From IMG/VR virus record IMGVR_UViG_3300025934_000014, positions 32,001-96,000 of that record: a DNA stretch of 64,000 nt; one strand, written 5' to 3'. Positions within the stretch are counted from its first letter, which is position 1. Each line of letters begins with the position of its first letter. Source of the DNA: a virus (lineage: Duplodnaviria > Caudoviricetes). This document shows positions 8,389-51,135 of this stretch, one piece after another. The notes beneath the pieces were generated by a model that ran no database searches, was not told the origin of the DNA, and was given only the letters and a program-made list of their open reading frames with translations. The position numbers and the translations under genes were made by a program.

Positions 8389-8615
8389 TCACCATCAAGC
8401 TCCCCTCCGGCGAACTCGCGAAGGTCGAGGACGGTATCTGGTCGGTGCCGGAGAACAACACGCTCGCGGAGTTACTAAACCGACCGTCGATGCAGCCGCC
8501 GGACAACGGGTACTACGCACCCAGTGAGGACGCACGCGCGGCCGAGCATGTCCTGAAGGTCTGGGGCGGCACGTGGGTGTCGCCCACGCCGCGCTGGCCG
8601 AAGAAGGTGTACTGA
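8385..8615 (+). CDS. Small protein (76 aa), candidate partner of upstream peptidase
   Basis: ATGA overlap upstream and TGATG overlap downstream; carries no tag. Confidence 0.65.
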   Translation: MITIKLPSGELAKVEDGIWSVPENNTLAELLNRPSMQPPDNGYYAPSEDARAAEHVLKVWGGTWVSPTPRWPKKVY

Positions 8616-10672
8616 TGCCTGCCCCGCCGCACGCGGATCGCTTCACGTGGCACGAGTTCACGATTGTCAAGCCGAAGCCGAAGACGCTGTCGTATCGCGA
8701 GAAGCTCGCGCTCCTGCTGGGCGATGTCGAAGGCCACCCGTTCCGGGGGAACCAGTGGACCGACGGCGAAGGCGGCGGCAGTGACCGCACGGAGTCGCCC
8801 CGATTCAAGGCGTGGTTCAAAGAGTCGAAGGTAGTCGATGACTCCGGCGAGCCGCTGGTCGTCTATCACGGCACGACACACGACATCGAGGCGTTCAAGA
8901 AGGCCGGGGACGAGGGACTGAATCCCGAGTCGGACTGGGGCGCTGGCGTGTACTTCACCAGTGAACCCGAGGACGCGGGGGAGAACTATGCAGGCGAAGG
9001 GCCGGACCTGACGGCTCGCATCGAGAACGAAGTGGATCGCCTGCAAGGAGAGAACGAGGATCTGTCCCGCGAGGAGGCGCTGGCGCAGGCACGCAAAGCA
9101 CTGGCTGGCAAGTCCGTCGCGATCTACCCGGCGTACGTGTCGATGCAGAAGCCGTTCATCGTGGGCCAGACCAACGGCACCTCACCGCAGGCGGAGACGT
9201 GGCTGACCTCCGAGCCGGTCTATGACGACCCCGAGGATCCTGACAGCGACATCATTGACGAGCAGGGCACGTTGCCAGACTTCATGAAGGCGCTGCGGGA
9301 CGAGGCCAGTCGCCACGATGGCGGCGACAAGGCCGTCGATGAATTCCAGACACGCGTCATGGACAGCCACGGCAGCGAGATCAAGGCGTCCGATCTCGTC
9401 AAGGCATGGAACGACACCGAGGAAACCAGCTACATCACGGACGACGAGGGCAGGCTGACGGGCAAGGAAGTGTTCCGGGCGGCGCTGGAACGGGCCGGGT
9501 TCGATGGCGTCATCGACCGCGAGGTGGATACGAAGTTCGGGTCGCAGCGGCGTCTCGGCCAGTCGATGAAGGGGATGAACCCGGACACGACGCACTTCGT
9601 GGTCTTCACGCCGACGCAGATCAAGAGCGCCACGGGTAACACGACGTTCGACCCCGCGAACCCGAAGATCACCATGTCGGCGCACGGCCGACGCTTCGTG
9701 TTACTGGGCGGGGCCGGGAGCGGAAACTTCGGACACGCCGGTCGGCCGGGCGAGGTAGGTGGCTCTGGCGAGGGTGAGGAATTCCCCACTCGTGCCTCTG
9801 GAAAGAACGCAGCGCAAGTCCGGGATGCGATGCTGAATCACGCACGCGAGAGTGCTGGGCTGAAGCGGTCGGCCGCTGCATGGCTCGACCCCGAGACGAC
9901 GAGTTCACTGCCGGTGCGTGGCGCGGTGAAGAACGCCATCGTGACGAAGATCACAGCCGCGCTTGCAGACCATCCCGCGTTCGCGAGCATGGAACCTCGG
10001 CCTCCGATGAATCTGGACCCTGTCTCGGAGTGGGTGAAATCCAAAGTCAATTTGTGGGCGGACACATCAGGGGATAGCGATGTCGATGCCGCGAAGATGC
10101 AGTTGGCTGTGGCGCGAGAATTAGGGCTGACCAACGCAGAGACGGACCATCTCCAGCGGAACATCAAAGCCGCGCACGGCGGACCCGTCACATTGAAAGG
10201 GAAAGAAGAAGAACAGCTTCGCGCTTTCGTGCGAGCCGAATACGACGCCACGCAGGCATGGTTCAAGGAGCAGGGCATCACGCACGTCTCGGTGTTCCGT
10301 GGAGTAAGTGACGACGACGACGAACTGGGGTACGGGTTCGAGACAGTGACGATGCAACCGGCGTCCTCGTGGTCAACGGACCTCCAGACCGCGTGGGAGT
10401 TCTCGCAGAACGGATCGAAGCCGAAGGTGCTCACAGCACGGGTGCCGGTCGCGAAGGTCTTGAGCACGTGCGTGACGGGACGCGGCTGCTTGGCCGAGCA
10501 GGAGGTGATTCTGCTGGGCACGCCGACGAAGGTTCGCGTCTACGGAGCCGACGACGAATGGAGCAAGATCGAGAAGAAAGTCGCGAAGGATGTAGGACTA
10601 CCAGCCCCAGTGGACACGACTGGGATTGCACCGGGCATGAGTTGGGACGACGTAAAGAAGTCGTTTGAATGA
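8615..10672 (+). CDS. Polyvalent protein 3: ART-PolyVal-like ART plus R-S-E (DraT-like) ART
   Basis: FKAWF..KVVD..GEPLVVYHGT..GVYFT..GFDGVI..VVF.PTQIKSA (~8790-9680); VFRG..SSWST..AEQEVILLG (~10040-10545). Confidence 0.85.
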   Translation: MPAPPHADRFTWHEFTIVKPKPKTLSYREKLALLLGDVEGHPFRGNQWTDGEGGGSDRTESPRFKAWFKESKVVDDSGEPLVVYHGTTHDIEAFKKAGDEGLNPESDWGAGVYFTSEPEDAGENYAGEGPDLTARIENEVDRLQGENEDLSREEALAQARKALAGKSVAIYPAYVSMQKPFIVGQTNGTSPQAETWLTSEPVYDDPEDPDSDIIDEQGTLPDFMKALRDEASRHDGGDKAVDEFQTRVMDSHGSEIKASDLVKAWNDTEETSYITDDEGRLTGKEVFRAALERAGFDGVIDREVDTKFGSQRRLGQSMKGMNPDTTHFVVFTPTQIKSATGNTTFDPANPKITMSAHGRRFVLLGGAGSGNFGHAGRPGEVGGSGEGEEFPTRASGKNAAQVRDAMLNHARESAGLKRSAAAWLDPETTSSLPVRGAVKNAIVTKITAALADHPAFASMEPRPPMNLDPVSEWVKSKVNLWADTSGDSDVDAAKMQLAVARELGLTNAETDHLQRNIKAAHGGPVTLKGKEEEQLRAFVRAEYDATQAWFKEQGITHVSVFRGVSDDDDELGYGFETVTMQPASSWSTDLQTAWEFSQNGSKPKVLTARVPVAKVLSTCVTGRGCLAEQEVILLGTPTKVRVYGADDEWSKIEKKVAKDVGLPAPVDTTGIAPGMSWDDVKKSFE

Positions 10673-13600
10673 TGAACATCGACGCCAAACTCTCGAACGC
10701 CGACTGGCCCAAGCGCACGCCCGACCGCTTCCCTGCCCGTCGTGTGCATCTGGGCGGAGCCGGGTCCGGTAACTTCGGGCACGCGGGTCGGCCGGGTGAG
10801 ATTGGCGGATCCGCCGAGGGCGATGGCGAGGGCAGCTACAGCAAGAAAAGCGTCAAGGGCAAGAACATCGTCCGGGTGGACGATGAAGCGAACGATGCCG
10901 TCGTGTCGAACGTGCTGGGGCTGCACTCCGAAGCGGCCGTGCGTGACTTGGCCGAGTCGATGGTGCAGTACGCCGATCAGGAGAAGTTCGCGGTCACGAT
11001 CATGACCGAGGGCGGCGGTCCCGACGAGGAGGAACTCCGCGAGAGCTATGACGAGTACGTCGAGCAGTCGCGCCGGGAAGCCCGGAACGACTGGGTGGCC
11101 GAGCGTCGAGATCGCGCGGCCGAGATCGACACGCTCTGGGAGTCGATGAAGGCCGAGGCCGAGGAGGCCCGGCGCACGGGTCCGTATGGTGATACGCGCG
11201 AGATCCCGACGCTGCCGCTAGGCGAAGGCGAAGCCTTCCAGCCGGGCGACACGGCCGAGAAGATCGAGTACGAGGATCTCGTGGAGGGGCTGGATCCGTC
11301 GGCCCCGTGGTCCGAGGACGAGAAGGCCATCCTGCGCGAGCGCCTGATGCAGACGGGTGGTCCCGTGCAGAAGTCCATCAACCAGATGCGCAGCGAGTGG
11401 GACGAGGGCGTCGGGCAGGACTTTGAACCCAACGACTCCTTTCACGAGTGGAGCGCGGAGCAAGACGACAGCAATTACAGCGGCGAAGAAGTAGTGCGCA
11501 TCAAGTTTGCCGGATCCGCTGGCACGCAGATTACCCGCGAGTTCAAGCGCGATGGGAACGGCGAACTGGTCGTGGATCACAGCTACTTCCAAGCGGGGAA
11601 CACGGGCGGTGGCCTCGCGAAGGATCTCCTACGTGCGAGCTTTGACGAGTACGAGCGCATGGGCGTGGACAAGGTCACGGTCCACGCGAACATCGACGTG
11701 GGTGGCTACGCGTGGGCGAAGTTCGGCTTCAAGGTCGATGACGACGAGCACGGCGGACCTGATGTCGATAGCCTGATCGCTCGTGCCGAGCGCCGGGGCA
11801 TGATCACGCACGAGGAGCGGCTTCAGTTAGAGGACATTGCCACCGAGACGGACGGCGAGGACACGCAACTCTGGGCGATTGCGGATGCGACGAGCGAGGG
11901 CAAGAAGATCGGGTCGGCCGTGTTGCTGGGCAGCGACTGGTACGGACAAATCCGCCTCAAGGACAAGGAGGCGATGAACCGGTTGCACAAGTATCTCTCG
12001 GCATCGAAACCCGAGAAGGCGCTCCCTAAGAAACCCGCGCCAGCGCCAGTGCCAGTGACTGGAAAGCCTGAAGACAAACTCGCGGCGAAAGCAGGGGCGC
12101 TCACGGCGGAGCGTCGTCGGCTGATTGATACTGCGCGTGGCACGGCGGCTGAGGACGCGCGGTTGCGCGAGATCGATACCGAACTTCGGCGGCTGCAACG
12201 CGAGGCCCAGCGCGTCGTGCGTCCGTCGAACCAGAAAGCGAAGGAGACGGTCGCACAACGCGAACGACGCAAGCGTGAACGCGCCGACGTGCTGGCCGAG
12301 CAGAAAGAGCGGAACGCGAATCGGAAGCGACTGGGATTATCACCCATCAACTTTGCCGATGACCCGCCGACGCCCCCAACCGATCCGCCGACGCCTGATG
12401 CGCCGAGGCCGGGCAGTCGCGAGATGTTTTACGAGGAAGCCGACGGCACGCGTGCCGACCGCGACCTGTGGCGCGATCTGCTGGGCGAGGACTTCCCTGA
12501 CGACCTTCCACCGAAGCCGACCTCGCTGTACCGCGACAAGCTCCGGTCGATGCAACTGGAGTGGGACGAGGGCGAGCATCCGCGTGACGCACGCGGCCAG
12601 TTCGAGGACTCACACTCGCCGGGTGAGGCGCTGCATTCCCTGCTGGACGGCCACAAGACCAACATCGATCCACATCACGTCCGGGCGCTGCTGAAGAAGG
12701 CGCTCAAGCAGGGACTGGACGCGGATCTCACCGATCTGCACGTCAACGGGCATCTCATCTTCGGCGGCAACGGACTGGGCATCGCGCGAGCGGACATGCC
12801 GCAGATTCCGCCCGAGCATCGCGAGCCGTTCCTCCAGTCACTGCGGGACGCTGGCGTCACGGTGACGCGGGAGATGGTGAACCCGCTGACGCTCGCGCCC
12901 TCACAGAAAGAAATCTCCGCACGCCGCGCCGCCGAGAAGCTGGACAAACTCGAAACCAAGGGCAAGCCGTTCAAGCCGGTCTTGGTGTCACAGGGGAACC
13001 GCGTGCTCGACGGGCATCACCACTGGGCCGCAGCCGCCGCGCTGGCGCTGGAGCACCCAGAGATGAAGGTGCCGATCTATCGCATCAAGCTGCCGACGCG
13101 CCGGGCGCTGGCGAAGATGCACACGTACGACAAGACGCACGGCATTGAGCGCGTGGCGTTGTCGGCCATCGAGAGCGACGAGGTGACGGCGCATGAACAA
13201 GTGCTCCTGCTCGACTGGGACGAGAGCCTGCACCCACGCGCCGACGACGGCGAGTTCACCGATGGCTCCGGCGGCGGGAGCAATGCGTCTCCGTACGCGG
13301 TGTCGGAGGATGCACCTAGAGGCGGCGAAGGCCAGCAGGCGCTGTTCGAGTACCAGCCCGAGGCCGGGAGCGAAACCGCGCTGAAGATCGAAGCATCGAA
13401 GGGAATCGCGGCCATTGAGAAGCTCCTGCCAGACGCGATTGACGATGCGGACTATAAGGTCGCGGTCAAGTCGTGGGACGAACTGGACTCCGACGATCAG
13501 AACTCGGCCGAGGAGTCCTACATTGACGACATCATCAATGACAGCGGCCCGTCAGAGGCCGGGCAGGAAGCCTCCGACGCATACGTGAGCGAGCACCTCA

Positions 13601-14967: not shown

Positions 14968-16241
14968 TGCCCAGTCTCCAGCGCGACCAGATCGACGGCC
15001 GGTGGGCCACCATCGCGTACCTCCACGACGACGCACTGGTGGACCCCGACCGCGCGACGACGGCGATTGCGAAGTTCGACAACGGCGAGGTCATCCTGCT
15101 CGCGGTCACGCAGGAGCGGTCGCTGGCGCTCCCCGTGGGCGAGGTGATTACCATGCCGTTCGCGGACTACGAAGACTTCGCGGACTGCGTCGAGAAGAAT
15201 CAGGACAAGGACGACCCGAAGGCGTTCTGCGGCTGGCTGAAGCATCGCATCGAAGGGTCGGACCCGCCGCCGGTGGACCTGAGTTACCGGGACAAGCTCG
15301 CCCTGACACTGGCGGTCGCGAACTATGATAGTATAGATGCACGTCACCTTGAGTGGGACGAGGGGCAACACCCGCGTGCGGATGACGGGAAGTTCAGCGA
15401 AGGAGACGGCAGCAATGGCGGACACGCCGACGGACAACCGCAAGGATCGGGAACTGACGGAGGAGGAGGAAGATCGGTATCCGCCCCCGCCGCCAAAACG
15501 CACGCCCGTCCCGGAGCCGACCCCGCCGCCACGCGCGTAGCGGACAGCTACAACGAGCAGCACGGACTCCCGCCGGTCGATCACAGCACCTACGCAGAGG
15601 TTGACCAGCCGCGTGCGCGGAGCATTGCCGACGCGTACGACGCGCTGCCGGTCAACGACCAAGACAACCCCAAGGTCAAGGAAGCCTACGCCGCGCTGAG
15701 CACGGAGATTCAACAGCAGTGGGACCACATCGTCGCCAGCGGCATGACGTTGGAGCCGTGGACACAAGAGGGTCAGCCCTATCAGACCTCGACCGAGATG
15801 GTCGCGGACGTGAAGAACAACAAGCACATGTACTTCTACACGGGTGGCGAGCCGCACCCGTTGATCGGGGCGAAGTCGAAGGACAAGTCCGGGCTGTCCC
15901 TGAACGAGAAGTTCCGCGCCGTCCATGACTACTTCGGTCACGCCGCAGGCGGGTACGGCTTCGGGCCGCGTGGCGAGGAGAACGCGTGGCGCTCGCACTC
16001 GCAGATGCTGACGATGCCAGCGCGGCGTGCGTTGACGACGGAGACGCGCGGCCAGAATTCGTGGGTCAACTTCGGACGCCAGAACTACGAGGCCGACGGC
16101 ACGCACAAGAACCTGCCGCCCGGCGAGCGCCCGTTCGCCGCGCAGAAGGTGGCGCTCCTGCCGGACGAGTATGTGCTGATGCCCGGTGAGCAGCCGAAGT
16201 CGCTGTCGGCGTATCGCCAGCGGCTGCTGGGGGTCATGTGA
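14964..16241 (+). CDS. Polyvalent protein 5: IDGR domain, PFADY..DCV..C mini-domain, tags D+C, HDxxGH putative metalloenzyme
   Basis: FRAVHDYFGH..FGPRGEENAW..TETRGQNSWVNFG (~15915-16080); GTGA overlap. Confidence 0.75.
   Translation: MMPSLQRDQIDGRWATIAYLHDDALVDPDRATTAIAKFDNGEVILLAVTQERSLALPVGEVITMPFADYEDFADCVEKNQDKDDPKAFCGWLKHRIEGSDPPPVDLSYRDKLALTLAVANYDSIDARHLEWDEGQHPRADDGKFSEGDGSNGGHADGQPQGSGTDGGGGRSVSAPAAKTHARPGADPAATRVADSYNEQHGLPPVDHSTYAEVDQPRARSIADAYDALPVNDQDNPKVKEAYAALSTEIQQQWDHIVASGMTLEPWTQEGQPYQTSTEMVADVKNNKHMYFYTGGEPHPLIGAKSKDKSGLSLNEKFRAVHDYFGHAAGGYGFGPRGEENAWRSHSQMLTMPARRALTTETRGQNSWVNFGRQNYEADGTHKNLPPGERPFAAQKVALLPDEYVLMPGEQPKSLSAYRQRLLGVM
15415..15540 (+). CDS. Nested out-of-frame small acidic/Pro-rich peptide (41 aa)
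   Basis: AGGAG 15401-15405, ATG 15415, TAG 15538-15540; TG-a-TAGTAT extended -10 at 15326-15334 upstream. Confidence 0.4.
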   Translation: MADTPTDNRKDRELTEEEEDRYPPPPPKRTPVPEPTPPPRA

Positions 16242-19936: not shown

Positions 19937-21805
19937 ATGGCTGATCTGACGCGCGTCATCCTCTCGACTCCCTCCCTGCTGAGCGCGATCACGCTGAGCG
20001 GCACGGGCAAGCGCAGTTGGATCCAACTCGCGCGTACGGGTTCCTTCACGTCCAGTCGCTACGGCAAGTTCAGCATCACCAAGGACGACCTGTCCTCGAT
20101 GCTGCACAACTTCAAGACCATCACGCCGAAGAACCCGACCGAACTGCCGATTGATTGGGACCACCTCTCGATGGACCCCAAGAAGCCGGGCGACGGGGCG
20201 GCAGCGGCGTGGATGAAGAACCTTGAACTGCGTGACGACGGCGACACGCTCTGGGCCGAGGTCGAGTGGACGCCGAAGGGCATGGACGCGGTCGAGAACA
20301 AGGAGTACCGGTTCATCAGCCCGTCGTTCGTGAAGAACCACACGCACAAGGACGGGTCGAAGATCGGCACGACGTTGCTGGCGGCGGCGATCACGAATCA
20401 TCCGTTCCTTGAAGGGATGACGGCGCTGTCGCTCTACTCGTGCAAGGAAGTGCCGTTCATGGACTTCACCAAGACGGGGACGCTCGATGTGTCCGCGCAC
20501 GAACTGGTGAACCTGTCCACGACGGAAGGCACCAAGGCCGGGATGCGCGTCATGATCGCGCCGGGCAACGCCCGGACGCAGGACGAGATCGGCGCGACAT
20601 TCGAGATTGCCGAAGTGGTCGGGGAAGGGGACGACGCCTTCGTGTCCGTGAAGGATGCGAACGGCATGATCCACAAGTGGTTCCGCGCGACGGAACTGCT
20701 GCCTGCCAGTGCGACACCCGCCAACCCTCAGCATCCGGGCCTGACGCCGGGCGCAGCGCCGACCGTGCCGGTGCCGGGCCTGCCGGGACCGGGGGTGCCG
20801 GGGATCCCCGGTGCGCCGGGCGTGGTGCCGCCACAGGCTCCTATCGCGGCGCTGCCGGGCCAGCAGGGTGTTGCGCCCAACACAGCGGCGGTGGTGAATC
20901 CGACCAACCCGAATACGCCGGTGACGGATCCAGCGGCTCCCGTGACCCCGCAGGTACCGAATCCGGTCGGGGCCAAGCTGGAACAGAAAGCCGCTGGCTC
21001 GCAGGAGAAGGACGGCGCGGACGGCAAGGGCGGCAATCCCTTCGCGAAGGGCGAGGGCGACAAGAAGCCCGACGTGAGCGCGAAGGTCGATAAGGGTGCC
21101 GACGGCGAAGCCACGGTCGTCACCAAATCCGGGACCGACGGCGACGAGTCAAAAGTCGCCGCTGTCGTCAACAACCTGCCGCTTCCAGACGAGTTGAAGC
21201 AAGCCATCGCGGCTGCGTTGGCTGCGGCTGCGGCCAACCCACAGCAGAAGGGAATGCACATGAAGTTCATGCTGAAGAACGACGCCGGTGGCGAGGTGGA
21301 AGTCAGCCTCGAACAGTTGGAAGCCGCTGGCGTCAAGATCGTCAAGGACGGCGAGACGGTCATCCCGAAGGCGGACCTGACCAACTTGCAGTCGCAGGTG
21401 GTGTCGCTGTCTTCACGGCTCGATCAGACCGAGAAGGAAAAGTCCACGGCGGCGATGACGGTCGAACTGAACCGGCTGTCGCAGGGCGCGTTCATCACGA
21501 AGCCCGAGCGCGACTGGGCCGAGAAGATGTGGAAGGACACCGTGGACCTCTCCGGGTTCCGCGAGTGGGCCGCGACCAAGACCACGCCCGTTATCTCGCT
21601 GAACAAGGAGCACGGCTCCGGCGGCAAGGCCGAAGGCGATGCGAAGACCAACGGCGAGCAGGCCGAGGAGAAGCTGATCGAACTGTCGCGGAAGATCGCG
21701 AAGGACGAAGGCATCTCGCTGCGGGACGCGACGATCAAGGCGGGAACGCAGTTGGCGGGTGACGCCGAAGCGTACCGCGAGCGGTTCGCCTCGGCGGACG
21801 CGTAA
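19937..21805 (+). CDS. Mu gpI-like prohead protease fused to scaffold
   Basis: WIQLARTG..PIDWDH..AAAW..LWAEVEWT..EYRFISPSF..AAITNHPFL, then Pro-rich linker and coiled-coil C-terminus. Confidence 0.9.
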   Translation: MADLTRVILSTPSLLSAITLSGTGKRSWIQLARTGSFTSSRYGKFSITKDDLSSMLHNFKTITPKNPTELPIDWDHLSMDPKKPGDGAAAAWMKNLELRDDGDTLWAEVEWTPKGMDAVENKEYRFISPSFVKNHTHKDGSKIGTTLLAAAITNHPFLEGMTALSLYSCKEVPFMDFTKTGTLDVSAHELVNLSTTEGTKAGMRVMIAPGNARTQDEIGATFEIAEVVGEGDDAFVSVKDANGMIHKWFRATELLPASATPANPQHPGLTPGAAPTVPVPGLPGPGVPGIPGAPGVVPPQAPIAALPGQQGVAPNTAAVVNPTNPNTPVTDPAAPVTPQVPNPVGAKLEQKAAGSQEKDGADGKGGNPFAKGEGDKKPDVSAKVDKGADGEATVVTKSGTDGDESKVAAVVNNLPLPDELKQAIAAALAAAAANPQQKGMHMKFMLKNDAGGEVEVSLEQLEAAGVKIVKDGETVIPKADLTNLQSQVVSLSSRLDQTEKEKSTAAMTVELNRLSQGAFITKPERDWAEKMWKDTVDLSGFREWAATKTTPVISLNKEHGSGGKAEGDAKTNGEQAEEKLIELSRKIAKDEGISLRDATIKAGTQLAGDAEAYRERFASADA

Positions 21806-28661: not shown

Positions 28662-29276
28662 GTGGCCTACATCTTTCGCGGGGGTGTCCCGCTCGCGGTG
28701 CCGGTCGGGTACGCGACCGACCCGGCGCACGTGACCTTAGTGGCGCACCTGACCCGCCTGACGCGCTACGCCGATGCGGTCGCGTTCCTTGAAGCGCATC
28801 CCACTGACGGGTACCTCGCGGCCGACGTGCTGAACGGGGCGCTCTGGGCGAAGCGGTACCTGAACGCGTCGGCCCGGTTCTCGGCCGGACCTCCGAAGGA
28901 CCGGGCGCTGGCGCTCCGAGGCTGGCGTGCGCTCATGCACGTGCTGAATGGCACTCGCCCAAAAGTCGGGCGGCACCGGGAGCCGCCGCTGACGGCGGAA
29001 GCACTGGGGAGGGCAGCGGCCTCGGTCGCCCGGTGGCGGTCGGCGGTGGACGCGCTGTGGGGGCAGGAACGGGCCACGCTCGTCGCCCTGCTGCTTCAGA
29101 AGGCCGAGGGGCACTTCCGGGTATCGGTCGGCCATCGACGCGCCCTGAAGGCGCTGGCGCGGCGGAAGGGGCTGCGGAAGCGGGACGTGGTCCTGACGCT
29201 GGCCTCGTGGGATACCGGGCTGGCGCTCCGCCGGTTGCGGATGGCGACCTCGGTGGCGGACCTCGTCTACGCCTGA
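28662..29276 (+). CDS. Basic hypothetical protein
   Basis: 204 aa ORF filling the gap; TACAAT just upstream. Confidence 0.5.
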   Translation: MAYIFRGGVPLAVPVGYATDPAHVTLVAHLTRLTRYADAVAFLEAHPTDGYLAADVLNGALWAKRYLNASARFSAGPPKDRALALRGWRALMHVLNGTRPKVGRHREPPLTAEALGRAAASVARWRSAVDALWGQERATLVALLLQKAEGHFRVSVGHRRALKALARRKGLRKRDVVLTLASWDTGLALRRLRMATSVADLVYA

Positions 29277-42911: not shown

Positions 42912-45020
42912 ATGTCGCTGCTGCACCCGCGCTTCTTCATCAAGAACTGGCAGTATCTGCCGCCGACCGGTCTGGGTGCGGCCCAGATCGCGGTGCTGCC
43001 TGCTGGTACGTCCTCGATTCGCCTGACATGGACGAACCGACGGCCGGAGTACTACACCAACATCTGGTTCAGCAACGGGCAGTACATCAACTTCGTGGGT
43101 CCGGGCGTTACGACGTACGACGTGATCGGGCTGGCTCCGAATACCAGCTACAGCTTCTACGTGACCCACAGCGACGGACAGGGTCGCTACCTATCAAAGC
43201 CGTCGAACATCGCCTCGGCGGCAACACAGATTGCTTTCAATCCGCCGACCAGCGTGACGGCGACCCAGCGCGGCGATCTCCCGGCTGGCACGTCCACGAT
43301 TCGCCTGACGTGGGCGAACGCGCAGGCGGGTGATCCGATTGAGGTGTTTCGCGACGAAGCCTACGTCGGGCTGCTGGGGCCGGGGACAACGGCGTGGGAT
43401 GACACCGGCCTCGCGCCGAGCAGCACGCATTCGTACTTCCTGCGGCACTACCGCTCGACGGCCAGTGGTGCGTACGACACGCCGAACTCCAATCGGACCA
43501 GCGCCTCGACGCAGGAGAAATTCGATGCCCCGTACGGCCTGACGATCAGCAACGTCCTCTCCTATCCGGCTGGTACGTCGCAGTTGGCGCTGAACTGGGG
43601 TAATGCTCAAGCTGGCGATCAGATTCAGATTTACCGCTACCAGAATTCGTGGAATTACCTGACGACGGTTCCGGCGGGGACCACGTCCTACGTGGACAGC
43701 GGCCTCGCGCCGGGTACGTATTACTACTACTACCTCGTTCACATCAGGAACGGTTACACGTCGGGATTGATTCAGGCTGGACCCGTCTCGACGCACGCAC
43801 CGATGCCGTCGCCGGTGAACGCCTTTGTCTCGAATGTCGGCCCGTCCTCGATGAATCTGAACTGGACGAACGGGTCCGGCTCAGACACCGTCCGTGTGTG
43901 GATCTCCGTCGCTGGTGGTGGCTTCACGCCGTACGACTACGGTGCAGGGACGGCGGGACTGGCGTTCACGGGCCTCTCGGCTGGCACCAGCTACACGTTT
44001 GCCGTGCGGCATGTCCGTTACGGCACGGAGTCCACCGATCCGCCCGGTCAGTCGAACTGGGTCGGCACGACGACGCCGTTCCCGGCTCCGGCCGCGCCGT
44101 ACAACCTGCAAGTCGGCGTGCCGCACGATCAGGCACTGATCGTGTACTGGGCGAACGGTGACGGCGGGGCGCAGACCGAGGTGTACCTCAATGGTGGCGG
44201 TGTTGCGACGGTTGGACCGGGCGTCACGCAGTACCAGATTAACGGCCTGACGCGCTGTACGAACTACACGATTCAGTTGCGTGCCCTGAAGAACGGTGTG
44301 TACTCCGGCTTCGTCAGCATCGTCGGGCGACCGCGCATGTACGTTTCCGGCGGCTACGCGCAGAACGACGGGGCGACCGAGTATCACTGGTACTATCAAG
44401 GCGAGTTCGACATCACGCTGCAAGTCCCCGGACAGATCAACTACTCCGGCTTCGGGGCCGGTGGGTACGGTGGGCAGGGCAGTCCCGATGACGGCGTGTC
44501 GAATACAGGTGGCGGCGGCGGTGGCAGCGGCGGCGCGTTTCTCCAGTACGACAACGTCGAACCGAATGGCACCTACCACGTGGTCACGGGGTGGCTGGGT
44601 TACGCGGGTGCGACCACCTACCGCGACGACATCGCCTTCAACGGTGGCTGGGGCGAGTGGGGACTCAACGAGCGCGGCGGCAACGGCAGCTATTCTGGCG
44701 GCGGCGCGGGGAGCGCCTATCCGCAGTACGGCGGCGGCGCAGGGTTTCCCGGTGGGCCGAATAACAGTTGCGGTGGCGGTGGCGGTGGTGGCGCACGTGG
44801 CGGCGGTGCCAGTTCGCAAAGCGGTGTCGGTGCGCCGGGCGGCGGCGGCTTCGGGTTGCCGATCTTTGGCAATGTTGGGTTCGGTGGACAAGGTGGCCGT
44901 GGTCCGGGGTCCGGGGCGAATGCGACCTACTGGGGGTCCGCTGGTGCGGGTGGTGGCCCTGATGGCGGCGGCGGCGGCGGGGCGACGAACGGTGGCTTTA
45001 TGGTGTGGTTCCCGATTTAA
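42912..45020 (+). CDS. FN3-repeat/Gly-rich tail protein, paralog of the C-terminal half of 36093
   Basis: Five FN3-like repeats; shared NSCGGGGG..PIFG..GG.GGRGPGSG.NAT.WG..GGF..W.P end. Confidence 0.8.
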   Translation: MSLLHPRFFIKNWQYLPPTGLGAAQIAVLPAGTSSIRLTWTNRRPEYYTNIWFSNGQYINFVGPGVTTYDVIGLAPNTSYSFYVTHSDGQGRYLSKPSNIASAATQIAFNPPTSVTATQRGDLPAGTSTIRLTWANAQAGDPIEVFRDEAYVGLLGPGTTAWDDTGLAPSSTHSYFLRHYRSTASGAYDTPNSNRTSASTQEKFDAPYGLTISNVLSYPAGTSQLALNWGNAQAGDQIQIYRYQNSWNYLTTVPAGTTSYVDSGLAPGTYYYYYLVHIRNGYTSGLIQAGPVSTHAPMPSPVNAFVSNVGPSSMNLNWTNGSGSDTVRVWISVAGGGFTPYDYGAGTAGLAFTGLSAGTSYTFAVRHVRYGTESTDPPGQSNWVGTTTPFPAPAAPYNLQVGVPHDQALIVYWANGDGGAQTEVYLNGGGVATVGPGVTQYQINGLTRCTNYTIQLRALKNGVYSGFVSIVGRPRMYVSGGYAQNDGATEYHWYYQGEFDITLQVPGQINYSGFGAGGYGGQGSPDDGVSNTGGGGGGSGGAFLQYDNVEPNGTYHVVTGWLGYAGATTYRDDIAFNGGWGEWGLNERGGNGSYSGGGAGSAYPQYGGGAGFPGGPNNSCGGGGGGGARGGGASSQSGVGAPGGGGFGLPIFGNVGFGGQGGRGPGSGANATYWGSAGAGGGPDGGGGGGATNGGFMVWFPI

Positions 45021-45026
45021 GGAGCG

Positions 45027-45452
45027 ATGACGATGCCGATAGTGATGGCCGGAAAACAGTTCAACGCGTGGGATGTGAAGTCACTGGCTGGCGATCTCGC
45101 GGGTCGCTTGCGCGAAGCCGCGTACGCCTGCGCGGTCCTTCAGGCGCAGTTGAAGTCATGGGCGGATGCGGATCTGGTCGCGCTGGGCCTGAAACAGGAC
45201 GAGATCAACGCGCTCAAGGGGTTCTTCATCAGCGACGTGCAGCACGTGCAGGCGGCGCTCGCGGCCTCGCCGTGGCTCAAGGACATCGTCGGCCTCGGCG
45301 TCTACGGGTACCCGACGACGGTGATGCCGCCGATCACGCCGGTGATGCAGCCGGGACTCCAGATAGTGCCTACGTCGGTGGCGGCGCAGGTACCGCAGGA
45401 GCCACCCGTCGAAGCGCCGTCGCCCTCCGCTGAGGAGCATCGCACGCAGTGA
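45027..45452 (+). CDS. Hypothetical protein
   Basis: AAGGAG RBS; 141 aa. Confidence 0.65.
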   Translation: MTMPIVMAGKQFNAWDVKSLAGDLAGRLREAAYACAVLQAQLKSWADADLVALGLKQDEINALKGFFISDVQHVQAALAASPWLKDIVGLGVYGYPTTVMPPITPVMQPGLQIVPTSVAAQVPQEPPVEAPSPSAEEHRTQ

Positions 45453-45736
45453 CCCTGCGGGAAGCGGTGACGGCTCGCGTGCCGCGTGTGCGCCACGCGC
45501 GATGGGCCGACCCGTTGACGTACTATCGCCTGCCGCTGCTGCCGGGGCTGGTCGCCGGAGACTGGGTCGAGTTATATGACGACCGGCAGCAACTGGCGAT
45601 GGGTGTGAAGCCGGGCACGGCGCGGTTGCTGATCAGCGTGGCCGGAATGAACGGTGGCTTTGTGCCCTACTGGGGACCGGTGTCACCATTCGAGCAGGAC
45701 CGGGCGAACTTCGCCCGAACGTACATAGACTTCTGA
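45449..45736 (+). CDS. Hypothetical protein
   Basis: GTGA overlap. Confidence 0.55.
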   Translation: MTLREAVTARVPRVRHARWADPLTYYRLPLLPGLVAGDWVELYDDRQQLAMGVKPGTARLLISVAGMNGGFVPYWGPVSPFEQDRANFARTYIDF

Positions 45737-45746
45737 AGGACCGACG

Positions 45747-46190
45747 ATGCACACGATGCAGAAGGAAGTGATACCGGGGCTGGCGACCCGCACGTGGACG
45801 CTGGTGGGCTACGACGTACGGCTGGCGAATTATGGGAGCATGTTCCCGCAGACGCCGCCGTTCCCGCCGGGGGTGCCGCCGCCGCCGGGGATGGACATGC
45901 CGCAGATGCAGATCCGCCTGAAGGTGGAGACGGCGTTCGCGGGGTTCCCGGAGATGACGTTTCTCGACTGGTGGTCGATCTTTGTCATCGGCGCACAGGC
46001 CGCACTGCGGATGCAGGAGATCGCCGGGCCGATTCTCGCGGCGGCGATGGCGCACGTGACGACGCCGGAGGACGCGATCACCGCCTACAAGGTGGCGACG
46101 ACCAAGGCAGCGTACGCCTTCTGTCAGGACGCCCTCGTGCCGCCGTTGCAGCGCATTCCCGACGACGCGGTGTTGACGGGCGAGCCATAA
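45747..46190 (+). CDS. Hypothetical protein
   Basis: AAGGA RBS. Confidence 0.6.
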   Translation: MHTMQKEVIPGLATRTWTLVGYDVRLANYGSMFPQTPPFPPGVPPPPGMDMPQMQIRLKVETAFAGFPEMTFLDWWSIFVIGAQAALRMQEIAGPILAAAMAHVTTPEDAITAYKVATTKAAYAFCQDALVPPLQRIPDDAVLTGEP

Positions 46191-46224
46191 TCCATTCGAC
46201 TGTGTGACGACGGAGGAGACGACG

Positions 46225-46473
46225 ATGCCCCTGACGACGATGAGTGTGTTGCCCGATCTGGGAGATCGCCGGTTTGGAAGTCTGGCGCTGGGTTACGACA
46301 AGATCATGCAGATCAGGGTGGAGCACAGTGCGCTTGCCGCGCTCGCCGCTGCCGCGTGCGAATGCGAAGTCGAAGACCTGACGATCCTCAAGATCCAGCA
46401 AGTCACGGCCGCGCTCGCGAGCGCAAAGAATGCCGCGACGGACGCCGCTGGTGTTGATGGCTCCACGATGTGA
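46225..46473 (+). CDS. Hypothetical protein
   Basis: GGAGACGACGATG start motif. Confidence 0.6.
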   Translation: MPLTTMSVLPDLGDRRFGSLALGYDKIMQIRVEHSALAALAAAACECEVEDLTILKIQQVTAALASAKNAATDAAGVDGSTM

Positions 46474-46490
46474 CCAGTAGTTCTCCGGTG

Positions 46491-46519
46491 TAGACATTAT
46501 CAATCGCCTGTGCCACGCT
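46491..46519 (+). promoter_or_regulatory. Promoter directly upstream of GGY-NN array 1
   Basis: TAGACA-17 nt-CACGCT with TG extended -10; predicted start site falls in the first pentamers. Confidence 0.5.
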
Positions 46520-46750
46520 GGCGAGCCGGGGCCGGGTAAGGATAGGCGGGGCACGGTTTGCTTCGGTCTGGTGGGGTTAGGTGAGGCCGGGCATGGCGAG
46601 GCATGGCTTGGTTTGGCGAGGCAGGGCTTGACATGGTGCGGTGAGGCAGGGTTGGGTTGTGTCGGGCACGGTAGGTGTCGGGTCGGGCACGGTTGGGTCC
46701 GGCGAGGCATGGTGTGGCCGGGTTCGGTTCGGCCGGGTAGGGTACGGTTT
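46520..46750 (+). ncRNA. GGY-NN pentamer array 1 (46 units), candidate guide RNA
   Basis: Manual parse: 31 units, 1 extra nt, 15 units; 40/46 begin exactly with GGC/GGT; last two bases vary freely. Confidence 0.8.
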
Positions 46751-46782
46751 TCTATTACGACGACGAAGGCGGAGACGACGGA

Positions 46783-47397
46783 ATGACAACAGCAACAGCA
46801 ATTGGGCCAGTCACGAACGGTGCGCTGGCGACTCTCAAGTTTGAACTCCCATACGTGGCGAGCGTGAGACTGGTCGGCGTGGCCGACATCCTGTTCCACC
46901 GGTGGAACGTGGAAGGGGTTGCATCGAAGGCGCTCGCGAAGAAGGGATCGGCAGCGAAGAAGACCGACGACATCGAGAGCTATGTCTATCGCAACGACGC
47001 CGAGGAAATCTGCATCCCCGGTGAGTACGTGCGGCAGGCGATCATCAACGCGGCGAAGTACCGTCCGGACCCGCGCAGCCCTCGCAAGTCTGCGATGGAC
47101 CTGTTCAAGGCAGGCGTCGTCTCACTCACGGACCTCGCCTCGACGGGCGTCACGAAGTGGGACTTTGAAGACAAGCGGCGCGTGCAGGTTCAGCGTGCAG
47201 GTATCACGCGTGTGCGTCCGGCGCTGAAGCAGGGGTGGGCGATTCAGGTCGAACTGCTGGTGAATCTGCCGGAGTACATCGCGCCTGCGGATCTGCTTGA
47301 AGTGATCGTCAACGCGGGTCGCCTGATCGGACTGGGCGACTTCCGGCCGACGTACGGTCGGTTCTCAGTCGTCAGTTTCGAGTGCCTTCAGGGCTGA
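46783..47397 (+). CDS. Solo Cas7/RAMP-like RNA-binding protein (204 aa)
   Basis: VRLVGVADILFH (beta1), ICIPGEYVRQAI (RAMP IPGxx helix), RVRP, GW..QVEL, C-terminal Gly loop AGRLIGLGDFRPTYGRFSV. Confidence 0.75.
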   Translation: MTTATAIGPVTNGALATLKFELPYVASVRLVGVADILFHRWNVEGVASKALAKKGSAAKKTDDIESYVYRNDAEEICIPGEYVRQAIINAAKYRPDPRSPRKSAMDLFKAGVVSLTDLASTGVTKWDFEDKRRVQVQRAGITRVRPALKQGWAIQVELLVNLPEYIAPADLLEVIVNAGRLIGLGDFRPTYGRFSVVSFECLQG

Positions 47398-48015
47398 GTG
47401 CGGTGGGCCTTGGTCGGGTTTGGCGGGGCGAGGCATGGTTTGGCTCGCTCTGGTCAGGCTGGGCAAGGCGAGGCGAGGTCGGGTGAGATACGGCTTGGTG
47501 CGGCCTGCCTTGGCGAGGTCGGGCGTGGCGAGGTCCGGTGGGGTTGTGTCTGTCCGGGTGTGGCGAGGCGTGGCGTGGCACGGTCAGGCACGGTGAGGCA
47601 CGGTCTGGCTGGGCGAGGTTAGGCGAGGCCGGGCGCGGTTCGGTATGGCGCGGCAGGCTCTACGGCGCGGTGCTTCAGGCACGGCGCGGCAGGTTCTGCC
47701 GTGAGGTCTGGTTGGGCGGGGTTCGGCGTGGCGAGGCTGGCTACGGCCCGGTCAGGCGCGGTGCGGTTTGGTCAGGCATTGGCGCGGCACGGCAAGGTCA
47801 GGTTAGGTCGGGTTTGGCGAGGCATGGCTGGGGCGTGGCAGGGCGTGGCATTGGCGAGGCGTGATGTTGGTCGGGCTTGGTGAGGCAAGGTCCGGTTTGC
47901 CAAGGTCAGGCGTCGGTCGGGTTTGGTAGTGTCAGGCTAGGCAAGGCAGCGGCTTGGCGCGGCGCGGCTCGCTACGGCGTGGATTGGTTTGCCCCGGCGC
48001 GGTATGGCGTGGTCT
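47392..48015 (+). ncRNA. GGY-NN pentamer array 2 (~120 units), candidate guide RNA(s)
   Basis: Unbroken 5-nt phase 47392-47656 (53 units), then several 1-2 nt phase slips; ends at the next promoter's -35 box. Confidence 0.8.
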
Positions 48016-48043
48016 TGACATCGCCGTCGATTGGCATTACCAT
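48015..48043 (+). promoter_or_regulatory. Early promoter
   Basis: TTGACA-17-TACCAT. Confidence 0.8.
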
Positions 48044-48081
48044 TGGACGGTAAGGTCAATTCGGAGACGACGGAGGCGACG

Positions 48082-48324
48082 ATGAACGCAGAGATTCCTA
48101 CCCCTGAACAGGTCGCAGCGGATGCACGACAGGTCGTGCTCGCGGATGTCTATACCGGGCTTCGCATGGGCGGCTACACCTTCATTAGCGCATTGAAGGC
48201 GTTGCGCATCCTCGGCCTCTCGCTGGCCGAAGCGAAGGCCGTCGCGGACCAGTGCGATGCCCAGCGCGTGGCGATGCAGCAGTTGGCCGTGCTCGAACAC
48301 TTCCAGTCTGCGGTGGCGCATTGA
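48082..48324 (+). CDS. Hypothetical protein (possible ribosomal L7/L12-like helix pair)
   Basis: ISALKALR..GLSLAEAKAVAD; GGAGGCGACGATG start. Confidence 0.55.
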   Translation: MNAEIPTPEQVAADARQVVLADVYTGLRMGGYTFISALKALRILGLSLAEAKAVADQCDAQRVAMQQLAVLEHFQSAVAH

Positions 48325-48325
48325 G

Positions 48326-48550
48326 ATGGGCTTCTCCCTGCGCCAAGCCTTGGGTCCGCTCGTCGCGGACGCGCTGAAGCCGCAACACAATTGCCCGACG
48401 GGCAAGACGCCGCTGCCGACAAAGGCTGCGGCCGACCGGGAACTGCGTCGGATCAACGCGACCCTGCATATGAAGATGCACCGGTTCCGCTGTGGCTACT
48501 GCGACCAGTACCACCTCGGGCACGCGCGAGGGCGCAAAGGGGACCGATAA
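48326..48550 (+). CDS. Small Zn-finger protein
   Basis: C.TGK...A...RCGYCDQYHL. Confidence 0.65.
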   Translation: MGFSLRQALGPLVADALKPQHNCPTGKTPLPTKAAADRELRRINATLHMKMHRFRCGYCDQYHLGHARGRKGDR

Positions 48551-48582
48551 CTGGCCCTATGAGCGCCGTCATCAGATGGGGC

Positions 48583-48611
48583 TTGACTTCAGGGAACAGT
48601 GCGATTACCAT
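48583..48611 (+). promoter_or_regulatory. Early promoter
   Basis: TTGACT-17-TACCAT. Confidence 0.8.
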
Positions 48612-48681
48612 TAGAGGGTAGTTGATTGGACAGGTCGCCTGACGGGCGGCTAAGACGAGAACCGGATAAGAGGAGACGACG

Positions 48682-50244
48682 ATGGTCAAGAAAGCGGCGG
48701 CGGAGACGGCGGCAGCGGTGCCCTCCACGAGCGATTCCCAGATGGTGCAGTCCTTCAAGGCGGCACGTCGGGTATCGACTCCCATCATTGCAATCGAAAC
48801 GCCCGATGCGGCGGCGACGATCACCGCGCTGCGCAAGGCGCTGCCGGATTCCAAAACGCCGATCCTCTCGTGGGATTGCGCGAAGGGACTCTACGGGATG
48901 AACGATCCCGGCAAGACGGCGTTCGCGGTCCTCGGCGTGGATCCCGCGATGACGGTCAACGCGACCGAAACGCTCCTCGCGTGCGAACGCCTGCCGGAGT
49001 TGTCGGTGGTGTTCTTCCACAACTTCCAGCGCCAGATCAACGAGACGCCGACGATGCAGGCGCTGTGGAACCTGCGCGACCAGTTCAAGATGAACAAGCG
49101 CACGGTCGTCCTCCTCGGCCCGACGTTTCAGCTTCCGGCGGAACTGGCCGGTGACGTGATCACGCTGGACGAGCCGTTGCCGACGCGCGACGAACTCGGC
49201 GCGATTCTCGACCAGCAGCATAAGAACGCCGCGCTGGCGGTACCCGAAGACGAGACGCGCACGGCCGCGCTCGATGCCATCGTCGGACTTCCCGCCTACA
49301 CGGCCGAACAGGTCACGGCGATGGCGCTGACGAAGGACGGCATCAACGTCGGCAAGTGCTGGGAGCGCAAGATCAAGGCGATCCAGAACACCGATGGGCT
49401 GCGCGTGTGGTCGGCGCGTCCGGGCGAAACGACGCTCGATGAACTGCGCGGGATCGATAACGTGGTCGAGTTCTTCCGCCGCCTGATTGCGGCCGACGCG
49501 TTCGGCGCGATTGTGTTCATTGACGAAATGGACAAGGCGCTCGCCGGAGGCATGAGCGAACACACGGGCGACAGCGGCGTGAGCAAGGATCAGGTCGGCA
49601 CGCTCCTCAGCTACATCGAAGACACCGGCTCGCTGGGCGTGATGCTCGCGGGTGTCGCTGGCACGGGCAAGACGCAGTTGGTGAAGGCGGCAGGCGCGGA
49701 GAGCGGCAAGCCGGTCATCATCCTCGACCTCGGCGGCATGAAGGGCGGCGTGGTCGGAGAGAGCGAGCGCCATATTCGCGCCGCGCTGAAGGTCGTCACG
49801 GCCACCGCCGAGGGCCGCGTCCTGTTCGTCGGCACCGCGAACCGCACGACGCTGTTCACGCCGGAGATGAACCGCCGGTTCCCGGACCAGTTCTTTTACG
49901 ACACGCCGGACGACGCCGGGCGCAAGGCCATCTGGCCCGTCTACATCGCGAAGAACGGCCTCACGTCGTCGCAGGCCGCGATTCCCGCCGGGTTCGATGC
50001 CGGGTGGACCGGAGCCGAGATCAAGCGTGCGTGCGAACGGGCGGCGCTGTTCGGCACCACGGTGGTGGAGGCGGCACGGTTCATCATCCCGCAGTCCATC
50101 AGCGGCAAGAAGGTCATCGACGGCTTGCGCCGCGAGGCCGCAGGGCGCTTCCTCTCGGCCAGCCAGCCGGGCCTCTACGAACTGCCGGAGGCTCCGGCCG
50201 TTCCCCAAGTGGTCGTGGCGAACCGCTCCATCGAGGTGAACTAG
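48682..50244 (+). CDS. Ycf46-like AAA+ ATPase with rearranged motif order
   Basis: FIDEMDKA..GDSG precedes GVAGTGKT..LDLG..VGESE..TAN..PE..RRF. Confidence 0.85.
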   Translation: MVKKAAAETAAAVPSTSDSQMVQSFKAARRVSTPIIAIETPDAAATITALRKALPDSKTPILSWDCAKGLYGMNDPGKTAFAVLGVDPAMTVNATETLLACERLPELSVVFFHNFQRQINETPTMQALWNLRDQFKMNKRTVVLLGPTFQLPAELAGDVITLDEPLPTRDELGAILDQQHKNAALAVPEDETRTAALDAIVGLPAYTAEQVTAMALTKDGINVGKCWERKIKAIQNTDGLRVWSARPGETTLDELRGIDNVVEFFRRLIAADAFGAIVFIDEMDKALAGGMSEHTGDSGVSKDQVGTLLSYIEDTGSLGVMLAGVAGTGKTQLVKAAGAESGKPVIILDLGGMKGGVVGESERHIRAALKVVTATAEGRVLFVGTANRTTLFTPEMNRRFPDQFFYDTPDDAGRKAIWPVYIAKNGLTSSQAAIPAGFDAGWTGAEIKRACERAALFGTTVVEAARFIIPQSISGKKVIDGLRREAAGRFLSASQPGLYELPEAPAVPQVVVANRSIEVN

Positions 50245-50246
50245 CG

Positions 50247-50717
50247 ATGGCGGCGACGACGATGGTCTGGACGGACTACGCGATTCTGGAGCCGTCCAAG
50301 CCGACCTACGACAAGCACGGGAAGCCGGTGCGCTGGAAGGTGCAACGGAACGAGGAGGGGACGTGGCGCTGCCACTGCCCCGCCTACATCTTCAGCAAGG
50401 GCGTGAAGACGTGCAAACACATCCGCCGGTGCATCGATCAGCAAGTCAAGGAGCAGACCATCGCCACGCCGGTCGCGGTCGCTCCGGCGAAGTCGCCGCA
50501 CCGCATCGAGGCGGAGAAGGTGTTCGACGCGATGTGCGCAGCAGCCACCCAGAAGGCGCACGTGAACGTCAAGGCGCAGATCGGTGCCTCGGGCGGGGCG
50601 GCGATGGTGGACGTGCTGATGGCACGACTGGCGACGTGGATGCCGCCAGCAGCGGTGACGGTGACGACTGAGACGACGGTGGTCGGCGTGCGCCGGATCA
50701 CATTTGACGAAGATTAA
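50247..50717 (+). CDS. SWIM Zn-finger protein
   Basis: WRCHCPAY..CKHI. Confidence 0.7.
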   Translation: MAATTMVWTDYAILEPSKPTYDKHGKPVRWKVQRNEEGTWRCHCPAYIFSKGVKTCKHIRRCIDQQVKEQTIATPVAVAPAKSPHRIEAEKVFDAMCAAATQKAHVNVKAQIGASGGAAMVDVLMARLATWMPPAAVTVTTETTVVGVRRITFDED

Positions 50718-51135
50718 TCGCATCTGGTCGAAGGTCGAGAAGACCGATGCGTGCTGGCTTTGGACTGGTGGCAAGGCCGGTGGCGGTTCACCCGGCGAGT
50801 ACGGGCAGACGTTCTACCAAGGTCGCCCGATGCTGGCGCACGTTGCCATTGATTTGATCGTCAACGGCCCGTTACCGGAGGGGATGGAGCGTCACCACGA
50901 ATGCCAGAACAAGCTGTGCGTTCGGCCAGCGGCGGGTCACGTCGTCAGGGTGACGAAGGCTGAACACCGACGATTGACGGCACTGGAGAAGACAACGTGC
51001 GTGCATGGGCATCCGTACACGCCGGGCAATGTGTGGGTGGCTCCGAACGGACGACGCCGCTGTCGCATTTGCCTAAATCTGAAAGAGCGTTCACGCGAGT
51101 GGCGCAGGAAACACAGAAAAACAATCAATCGATAA
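50704..51135 (+). CDS. HNH endonuclease
   Basis: WSKV..CWLWTG..YG..AH..HH.C.NKLCVRP..H; C..GHPY..RRCRIC. Confidence 0.85.
   Translation: MTKINRIWSKVEKTDACWLWTGGKAGGGSPGEYGQTFYQGRPMLAHVAIDLIVNGPLPEGMERHHECQNKLCVRPAAGHVVRVTKAEHRRLTALEKTTCVHGHPYTPGNVWVAPNGRRRCRICLNLKERSREWRRKHRKTINR

Follow-up and report, generated by a model that had tools for sequence, protein, structure and literature searches.

A long GGY/NN pentamer array upstream of a Cas7-like gene in an uncultured phage: a probable VIPR guide array with a match to an allele of sister phages

Does a tract of GGY/NN pentamers that ends shortly ahead of a gene for a small Cas7-like protein in an uncultured phage encode a guide RNA and, if so, against which DNA might it be directed? 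The stretch analyzed here, hereafter the window, comprises 64,000 nucleotides (positions 32,001 to 96,000 of IMG/VR record IMGVR_UViG_3300025934_000014, Caudoviricetes). A first-pass annotation, made from the letters alone, had described the tract as a constant GGY scaffold with information-bearing NN positions beside a Cas7-like gene, a description that coincides with the published vrRNA code of VIPR. As described for that system, the phage-borne Vipr proteins are small RAMP proteins related to Cas7, and vrRNAs consist of 9-16 GGY/NN pentamers in which the NN pairs recognize double-stranded DNA, with one base skipped per pair (bioRxiv 10.64898/2026.04.26.720920). One Vipr protomer is reported per RNA repeat (10.64898/2026.04.26.720927), and VIPR architectures, 'typically' of two genes, differ between types (10.64898/2026.04.26.720920). 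The solo vrRNAs of the SUSP1 family are described as targeting close relatives, with self-matches scoring lower (10.64898/2026.10.15.759431). Because the VIPR code appeared in April 2026, the kind of system is not itself new, and attention is given here to the composition of the arrays, the protein that accompanies them, and the DNA that they match.

Array 1 consists of 46 GGYNN pentamers on the plus strand (window 46520-46750), and a second, Viterbi (dynamic-programming) parse agrees with the assignment of its units, which were called with a purpose-built caller, Tandem Repeats Finder picking up array fragments only. Specifically, 31 units in one register are followed by an extra base, constituting a 1-nt slip at 46675, and then by 15 further units; the NN lists given for these two blocks in the first-pass annotation agree letter for letter with the sequence. 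GG is present in 41 of the 46 units, a pyrimidine occupies position 3 in 45, and the full GGY is intact in 40. Such regularity goes far beyond what chance would produce: in the 122,115-base genome the 15 longest strict period-5 GG runs of the plus strand, reaching 20 units, all fall within arrays 1 and 2, and away from these arrays such runs on the minus strand reach four units at most. Of the 16 possible dinucleotides, 15 occur at the NN positions, with an entropy of 3.63 of 4 bits, and identical neighbors number 4 of 45 against 3.2 expected from shuffling; the scarcity of identical neighbors, remarked upon at the outset, together with the high complexity of the NN string indicates that array 1 is not slippage-like. 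The NN positions were also correctly described as more AT-rich than the genome, having a G+C content of 50% vs 65% (binomial p = 0.003).

Array 1 ends in TTTT (46747-46750), 32 nt ahead of the ATG of the 204-aa open reading frame (46783), in keeping with the distance of about 30 nt first noted, and a search for a hairpin before the TTTT found none, so the end does not resemble an intrinsic terminator. The start of the array had been placed at a predicted transcription start, a placement that gained no support: a consensus scan upstream of array 1 revealed no sigma-70-like site on the plus strand, and no common motif was found upstream of the arrays in nine related loci. The predicted fold of the array 1 RNA is no better than that of shuffled sequences (z = -1.14; ViennaRNA, quadruplexes not scored) and the array RNA matches no Rfam family, hammerhead and other ribozymes included, both of which fit an unstructured guide tract. 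No CRISPR repeat-spacer array appears in the Tandem Repeats Finder output, nor was an Rfam CRISPR repeat family matched. BLASTN of the locus against GenBank phages returned a single, irrelevant match of 182 nt. Short contigs from two soil-metagenome runs are identical to array 1, one (X3) over the whole array and another (X2) over its first 110 nt. Within the arrays, some units replace GGY with TGTCG or TGTYG; such units occur in window 46660-46695, where they flank the 1-nt slip of array 1, at unit 31 of array 2, and in loci L001, L005, L006, and L007. They are roughly 15-30 units apart and could represent punctuation.

By sequence comparison, the 204-aa protein encoded downstream of array 1 is homologous to a characterized Vipr and is predicted to adopt the RAMP fold. 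As a single sequence it matches PDB 36pp_D, 'SUSP1 Vipr protein', with an E value of 7.9e-8, and a profile of 21 homologues matches the same entry at 4.5e-10 over residues 57-199; identity to SUSP1 Vipr is low and the alignment is confined to the C-terminal two thirds. In SUSP1 Vipr, G1, G2, and Y3 of the repeat are held by residues H17, R138, D177, W178, and R179 (bioRxiv 10.64898/2026.04.26.720927). R138 corresponds to R145 of the phage protein and D177/W178/R179 to D186/F187/R188, all four being invariant among the 21 homologues; Trp is replaced by Phe at F187, and the N-terminal third, where SUSP1 H17 sits, is unaligned. The glycine-rich loop GLGDFRPTYGRF is likewise invariant among the 21 homologues. 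An AlphaFold2 model of the protein was of moderate confidence (pLDDT 69), with the G-loop and parts of the thumb below 50, and when this model was compared with the PDB by Foldseek, every listed top match was a Csm3/Cas7 protein from type III-A or type VII complexes (E from 7.4e-6, probability 1.00, TM 0.42-0.50). The protein falls into no Pfam family and matches phrog_4652 (function unknown), and its family numbers 7328 homologues at E <= 0.001. By analogy with its characterized homologue, the protein, here termed Vipr, should coat GGY/NN RNA.

If the NN string is a guide, a matching DNA might be expected to exist, and such a match was found for the first 15 units of array 1 (Table 1). Decoded as codons, the NN pairs of units 0-14 read EGRKYGTLSLGYDRI, exactly a peptide of protein P0124. 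In the rival allele 93% of the NN bases match, vs 67% in the phage's own allele, which lies approximately 260 nt upstream of the array. The route to this match bears upon its interpretation. The first match, L047, emerged from 827 kb of relatives gathered through an AAA+ gene, and its score of 15 equals the null maximum of 15 and is thus within the shuffled range; the strong matches, L093, L094, and L095, were found in loci picked as homologues of this weak match, making the search partly guided. Homologues of the target gene were obtained by protein search, the DNA encoding P0124 (L093 and L094) came from a metagenome collection, and L095 encodes the related P0123. On the L093-L095 loci the strict score is 24; the highest score among 300 shuffles is 14, and the other skips yield 10-12. 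Similarly, when 15-unit windows of the array were compared with 275 kb of phage relatives, the score peaked at 28/30 at start unit 0, while 20 shuffles reached at most 22/30 and skips of 0, 2, and 3 reached 20-21/30. The gapped NN-n search that the first-pass annotation had proposed was thus rewarded, in sister phages, at a level that neither shuffled strings nor NN, NN-nn, and NN-nnn spacings approach.

Several details of the matched sites are informative. The lone missed unit in L093 and L094 is a Ser TCx/AGT switch, and the mismatched units of L047, whose site lies in a small open reading frame homologous to that of the window, are synonymous switches between Leu or Arg codon families. Comparison of L093 with L047 shows that four of the five differing units switch to the guide state, which weighs against the concern that the search was guided. 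The match falls off beyond unit 14, which suggests a guide of 15 units and a layout of 15 + 16 + 15 units for the array. The 122-kb genome contains no self-target: with a 1-nt skip its highest score is 12, the same as the shuffled mean. Pfam revealed nothing significant in the small target gene, and an IMG/VR search for its family returned the L047 contig alone. For the remainder of the array, about 1.3 Mb of local DNA contained no match to units 15-30 that scored higher than shuffles, and an exact 8-unit seed from this block (units 19-26) gave nine matches in IMG/VR, with flanks at random level. No target of units 31-45 was found in the same 1.3 Mb or with exact gapped seeds in IMG/VR, where the 9-unit seed of units 31-39 gave 0 matches and the 8-unit seed of units 33-40 gave 17 with flanks at random level.

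Table 1. Features of the VIPR locus in the window and matched sites in related phages (positions without a locus name are those of the window).
Feature	Position	Strand	Basis or remark
Small gene, 82 aa, own 'A' allele	46225..46473	+	7 homologous protein clusters; no Pfam
Own copy of guide-1 target site	46261-46304	+	20/30 NN bases, 7/15 units
Swapped cassette: allele-specific rest of small gene, array 1, vipr, array 2	46264..48028	+	identity break vs L093/L094
Array 1 units 0-14, candidate guide 1	46520..46594	+	28/30 NN match, 1-nt skip
Array 1 units 15-30, presumed second guide	46595..46674	+	same GGY scaffold
Array 1 units 31-45, presumed third guide	46676..46750	+	after 1-nt slip; ends GGTTT-T
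vipr gene, 204 aa, Cas7-like RAMP protein	46783..47397	+	PDB 36pp, Foldseek, phrog_4652
Array 2, 124 GGYNN units, several 1-nt slips	47392..48015	+	GGY intact 106/124; NN G+C 51%
Array 2 units 39-53, candidate guide	47587..47661	+	24/30 NN vs G003, G004
Array 2 units 62-84, putative guide(s) vs relatives' head protease/scaffold gene	47700..47815	+	G002, G005
Promoter-like site TTGACA, 17 nt, TACCAT	48015..48043	+	consensus match only, 10/12; cassette right edge
Guide-1 site in L093	1402-1445		28/30 NN bases, 14/15 perfect units
Guide-1 site in L094	1474-1517		28/30 NN bases, 14/15 perfect units
Guide-1 site in L095	572-615		28/30 NN bases, 13/15 perfect units
Guide-1 site in L047	6660-6703		25/30 NN bases, 11/15 perfect units

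The phages that carry the matched allele proved to be close sisters of the phage under study. Two stretches of the window, 44860-46264 and 48028-50799, align to L093 at 98% identity, the interval between them being unalignable; for L094 the identity is 98.2% on the left side and 96.4% on the right, where the alignment restarts at 48011. The proteins flanking the site in L093 and L094 are 92-100% identical to those of the window, while the small gene product is just 61% identical. Neither sister possesses vipr or arrays. Flanks of 96-98% identity around an unalignable interior define a swapped cassette, which unites the allele-specific rest of the small gene with array 1, vipr, and array 2. Homology to the sisters stops where the guide-1 target site begins, at its first codon; given that about 55 positions were possible in the allele-specific part, this coincidence is no more than suggestive.

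In place of the VIPR cassette, the sisters carry two other open reading frames, of 333 and 288 aa in L093 (1859-3770), in which Pfam revealed nothing significant; this rival cassette may be a competition or defense cassette. At the same site L047 also carries two open reading frames, of 405 and 326 aa (6936-9155), and the second rival open reading frame bears an RLDGQH motif. At the right edge of the VIPR cassette, the promoter-like site, a sigma-70-like sequence, is located at the end of array 2, where sister homology resumes, and overlaps the listed TTG start of a 97-aa open reading frame, the real start of which is probably an ATG near 48082. Elsewhere in the genome, the two ends of the 122-kb record are bridged by a region of the relative G004 (64478-72794), which aligns first to genome 3040-2 and then to 122115-116743, indicating that the record is circularly permuted or complete.

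The second array of the cassette begins at the vipr stop codon, on the opposite side of the gene from array 1, and also yields matches in relatives (G001-G005), all of which are without vipr. The clearer of these involves units 62-84, whose NN bases match the head protease/scaffold gene of G002 (15377-15444) at 36/46 and that of G005 at 33/46, compared with 29/46 for the phage's own allele (20246-20314); the soft score of 26 exceeds a shuffled maximum of 18. An exact gapped seed of units 65-74 gave 0 matches in IMG/VR. If this reading is right, a head protease/scaffold allele ELWGSVEWTPQAALQIATKQYRF, or a close variant of it, should be among sites with an NN match of at least 80%. Units 39-53 match G003 (12552-12595) and G004 (6572-6615, minus strand) at 24/30 vs 20/30 for the own allele (29046-29090), a borderline result given that shuffles reach 23/30. 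Separately, a 181-nt contig from a wastewater run labeled RNA-Seq is identical to window 47631-47809, within array 2, and contigs of the same run that cover vipr are mostly less than 90% alike. The run is probably DNA; the guide block 47631-47809 may occur in another phage, or the contig may be RNA. Among runs recorded as RNA, none was listed as containing the stretch.

Whether the association of vipr with pentamer arrays extends beyond this phage was assessed in 46 related loci, 14 from IMG/VR and 32 from bacterial and archaeal assemblies spanning many phyla. In 41 of the 46, a strict caller found GG pentamer arrays, 12 units long or more and on the same strand, adjoining vipr, and a second caller found shorter arrays in four of the other five. 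Clustering of the flanking open reading frames identified vipr as the sole gene common to all 46 loci, and homologues of the window's neighbors were absent from comparable positions but for an isolated HNH (L007) and SSB (L022); with no other gene conserved beside vipr, a conserved accessory (vap) gene is not indicated. The 61 distinct arrays, totaling 2907 units, have just nine NN 6-mers common to different loci (shuffled expectation 0.2), and no NN 6-mer is shared between the window arrays and the arrays of related loci (vipr gene masked). Identical arrays are restricted to identical loci (L001, L002, L010, and L012). GGY is thus kept while NN strings vary among relatives, and the invariance of NN among relatives, which the first-pass annotation had named as counting against its reading, was not seen. 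A faster rate of change at NN positions than at synonymous sites did not emerge; a gapped, unit-level alignment of arrays from pairs with 87-90% identical vipr was over-fitted and no conclusion as to rate was drawn from it.

The longest array by a wide margin among the loci examined occurs in L042, a contig assigned by binning to Bathyarchaeia: a longer vipr homologue (3001-3886) is followed there by a GG pentamer tract (3908-6577) that runs for about 531 units (2.7 kb). L056 comes from a phage whose only relationship is through the AAA+ gene (41% identity); its minus strand (4194-5316) bears three GG pentamer arrays, of 138, 26, and 30 units, and it probably carries another VIPR locus.

The same collection allowed the one-base-skip code to be examined across the Vipr clade, by scanning local DNA (382 kb, arrays masked) with the 61 arrays at skips of 0, 1, 2, and 3. 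Matches scoring at least 16 numbered two, 10, zero, and two for these skips, respectively, and those scoring at least 20 occur exclusively with the 1-nt skip. In the top five matches displayed, the skipped base is codon position 3. The guides of the top matches are those of the planctomycete-borne loci L019, L032, and L033, and they match conserved open reading frames upstream of vipr in other planctomycete loci, L024, L025, and L045. Together these data extend the 1-nt skip rule, first worked out for systems of E. coli and Pseudomonas, to a distant Vipr clade found in many phyla. As an individual case, the upstream array of the Phycisphaeraceae-binned L019 (2884-2978) matches L025 (1041-1081) at 13 of 14 units and L045 (1085-1122) at 12 of 13 units with the 1-nt skip, in a conserved open reading frame about 2 kb upstream of vipr. 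Guides of the relatives were also compared with the genome under study; the best score, 16, came from the GC-rich array of L011 (null maximum 13) and was treated as chance.

Taken together, the composition of array 1, the homology of the adjoining protein, and the match to the sister allele make it highly probable that array 1 serves a phage VIPR as its upstream vrRNA array, with guide 1 aimed at the 'B' allele of the small gene in sister phages. By extension from the published SUSP1 system, the plus strand of the arrays would be transcribed, copies of Vipr would line up on the RNA, one per pentamer, with GGY held and NN exposed, and the exposed NN pairs would read double-stranded DNA while skipping one target base per two. 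In genes, the skipped base would usually be the codon wobble base. Binding, as an R-loop or triplex, would then be expected, on the model of the SUSP1 work, to silence transcription of the target. Array 1 would carry about three guides of 15-16 units each, of which guide 1, comprising units 0-14, would be directed at the 'B' allele carried by those sisters that have a different cassette instead of VIPR. The phage's own 'A' allele is diverged at eight of 15 units and should therefore escape guide 1. Given that guide 1 matches the allele of near-identical rivals and that the own allele is diverged, the array is most likely a weapon of competition between closely related phages.

Other explanations of array 1 must be weighed against this one, and the most substantial is that the array is the 5' leader of the vipr mRNA, to which Vipr would bind and so throttle its own synthesis, the NN positions having no outside target. 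The lack of a terminator hairpin in the 32 nt between the array and the vipr start makes co-transcription plausible, Vipr should bind any GGY/NN RNA, and the upstream arrays of several relatives finish in GGTTT units similar to the last unit of array 1. A pure leader role would, however, leave unexplained the outside target that units 0-14 match at 28/30, and it is at odds with NN strings that vary by locus over a conserved GGY and with a 122-kb genome devoid of a DNA self-target. The suggestion of autoregulation made in the first-pass annotation fared no better, the self-target search having returned only the shuffled mean and neither a promoter nor a terminator structure having been found. 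As the sole function of the array, then, a leader is considered unlikely, while a leader role alongside guiding could exist.

Explanations that dispense with guide function altogether are less probable still. GG runs at 3-nt spacing can in principle form G-quadruplexes, and the GG-N3 periodicity might thus produce two-layer quadruplexes, or another DNA or RNA structure, acting as a regulatory or replication element. Quadruplexes require neither the pyrimidine at position 3 nor the location of all arrays on the gene strand, in 41 of 46 loci arrays accompany a Vipr homologue, a gene is matched by the NN pairs when these are spaced at 3 nt, and the RNA fold, computed by ViennaRNA without quadruplex scoring, is no better than that of shuffles; a purely structural element is, on balance, highly improbable. 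That array 1 is a short-period tandem repeat and nothing more, a neutral slippage microsatellite or decayed repeat without function, is hardly credible when set against the near-random frequency of identical neighbors, the NN entropy, a scaffold kept across 46 loci in many phyla, identical copies in independent soil contigs, and a target match far above shuffles.

Within the preferred reading of array 1 as a vrRNA array, a more specific proposal can be advanced with considerable reserve. The VIPR cassette (46264-48028) might be a selfish allele-exclusion element in which guide 1 shuts off the alternative allele in sister phages, and probably also the rival cassette transcribed behind it, during co-infection, and guides of array 2 act against head-morphogenesis genes of those relatives; this is possible but rather doubtful. 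If true, the resistant allele of the small gene would travel with the cassette, the target would start at the first codon past the recombination junction, and the element would represent an RNA-guided, nuclease-free counterpart of homing-endonuclease marker exclusion.

Comparison with known systems places the locus closest to the type II VIPR of Escherichia phage SUSP1. Shared with it are a RAMP homologue and phage-carried genes for GGY/NN pentamer RNA, located here on both sides of vipr; of the five GGY-contact residues of SUSP1 Vipr, four could be aligned, one of them with Phe in place of Trp. As in VIPR more generally, a natural target is matched with a 1-nt skip at 80% or more of NN bases, the skipped base is at the codon wobble position, the target resides in a competing mobile element, and the self match falls below the rival match. 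In contrast to the type II vrRNAs described, with their 9-16 pentamers, the tracts here are continuous (46 and 124 units) and have no spacer, conserved tail, or pseudoknot; because VIPR architectures vary by type, the missing 3' tail argues against type II, and not against VIPR. The locus also differs from those VIPR described with a vap gene, none being conserved beside vipr in the 46 loci, and from those described as aimed at a satellite or resident prophage, in that what is targeted is an allele of a sister phage nearly identical to this one, adjoining the cassette junction.

A further point of comparison is provided by the 'staggered' vrRNA arrays that appear in the legend of fig. S18 and are not among the sRNA-seq-confirmed architectures (10.64898/2026.04.26.720920). 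As far as that legend describes them, they resemble the present arrays in being tail-less, with guide running into guide, and the slips in the window arrays (at 46675 and at several places in array 2) could be the legend's '1 nt overlapping positions'. The window arrays may thus correspond to these 'staggered arrays'. In a limited literature search, a guide against the alternative allele of the gene at a cassette's own junction, in phages otherwise nearly identical, was not found in the available portions of the three VIPR papers or of 10.64898/2026.10.21.760802.

Beyond VIPR, the system resembles the backbone of Class 1 CRISPR-Cas (Cas7/Csm3) in its protein fold and, as described for VIPR, in that each RNA repeat is bound by one protomer and bases are flipped at regular intervals. 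It differs in having a 5-nt vs 6-nt period and a non-contiguous guide, and in the window there is no repeat-spacer array, no cas1 or cas2, and no other cas gene. A functional parallel can be drawn with T-even phages, in which homing endonucleases mediate 'marker exclusion': an optional cassette attacks relatives' allele by the insertion site and carries a resistant allele. Here too an optional cassette appears set against the allele of near-identical relatives, its own allele being presumably resistant; unlike marker exclusion, the agent would be an RNA-guided binder, no nuclease being evident. Long and tail-less, the arrays also show no processing signal by which individual guides would be set apart. 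What is new is a concrete target pair, rival vs own allele, for a VIPR guide in uncultured soil phages, a pair that constitutes a natural experiment in self/non-self discrimination and in the mismatch tolerance of VIPR.
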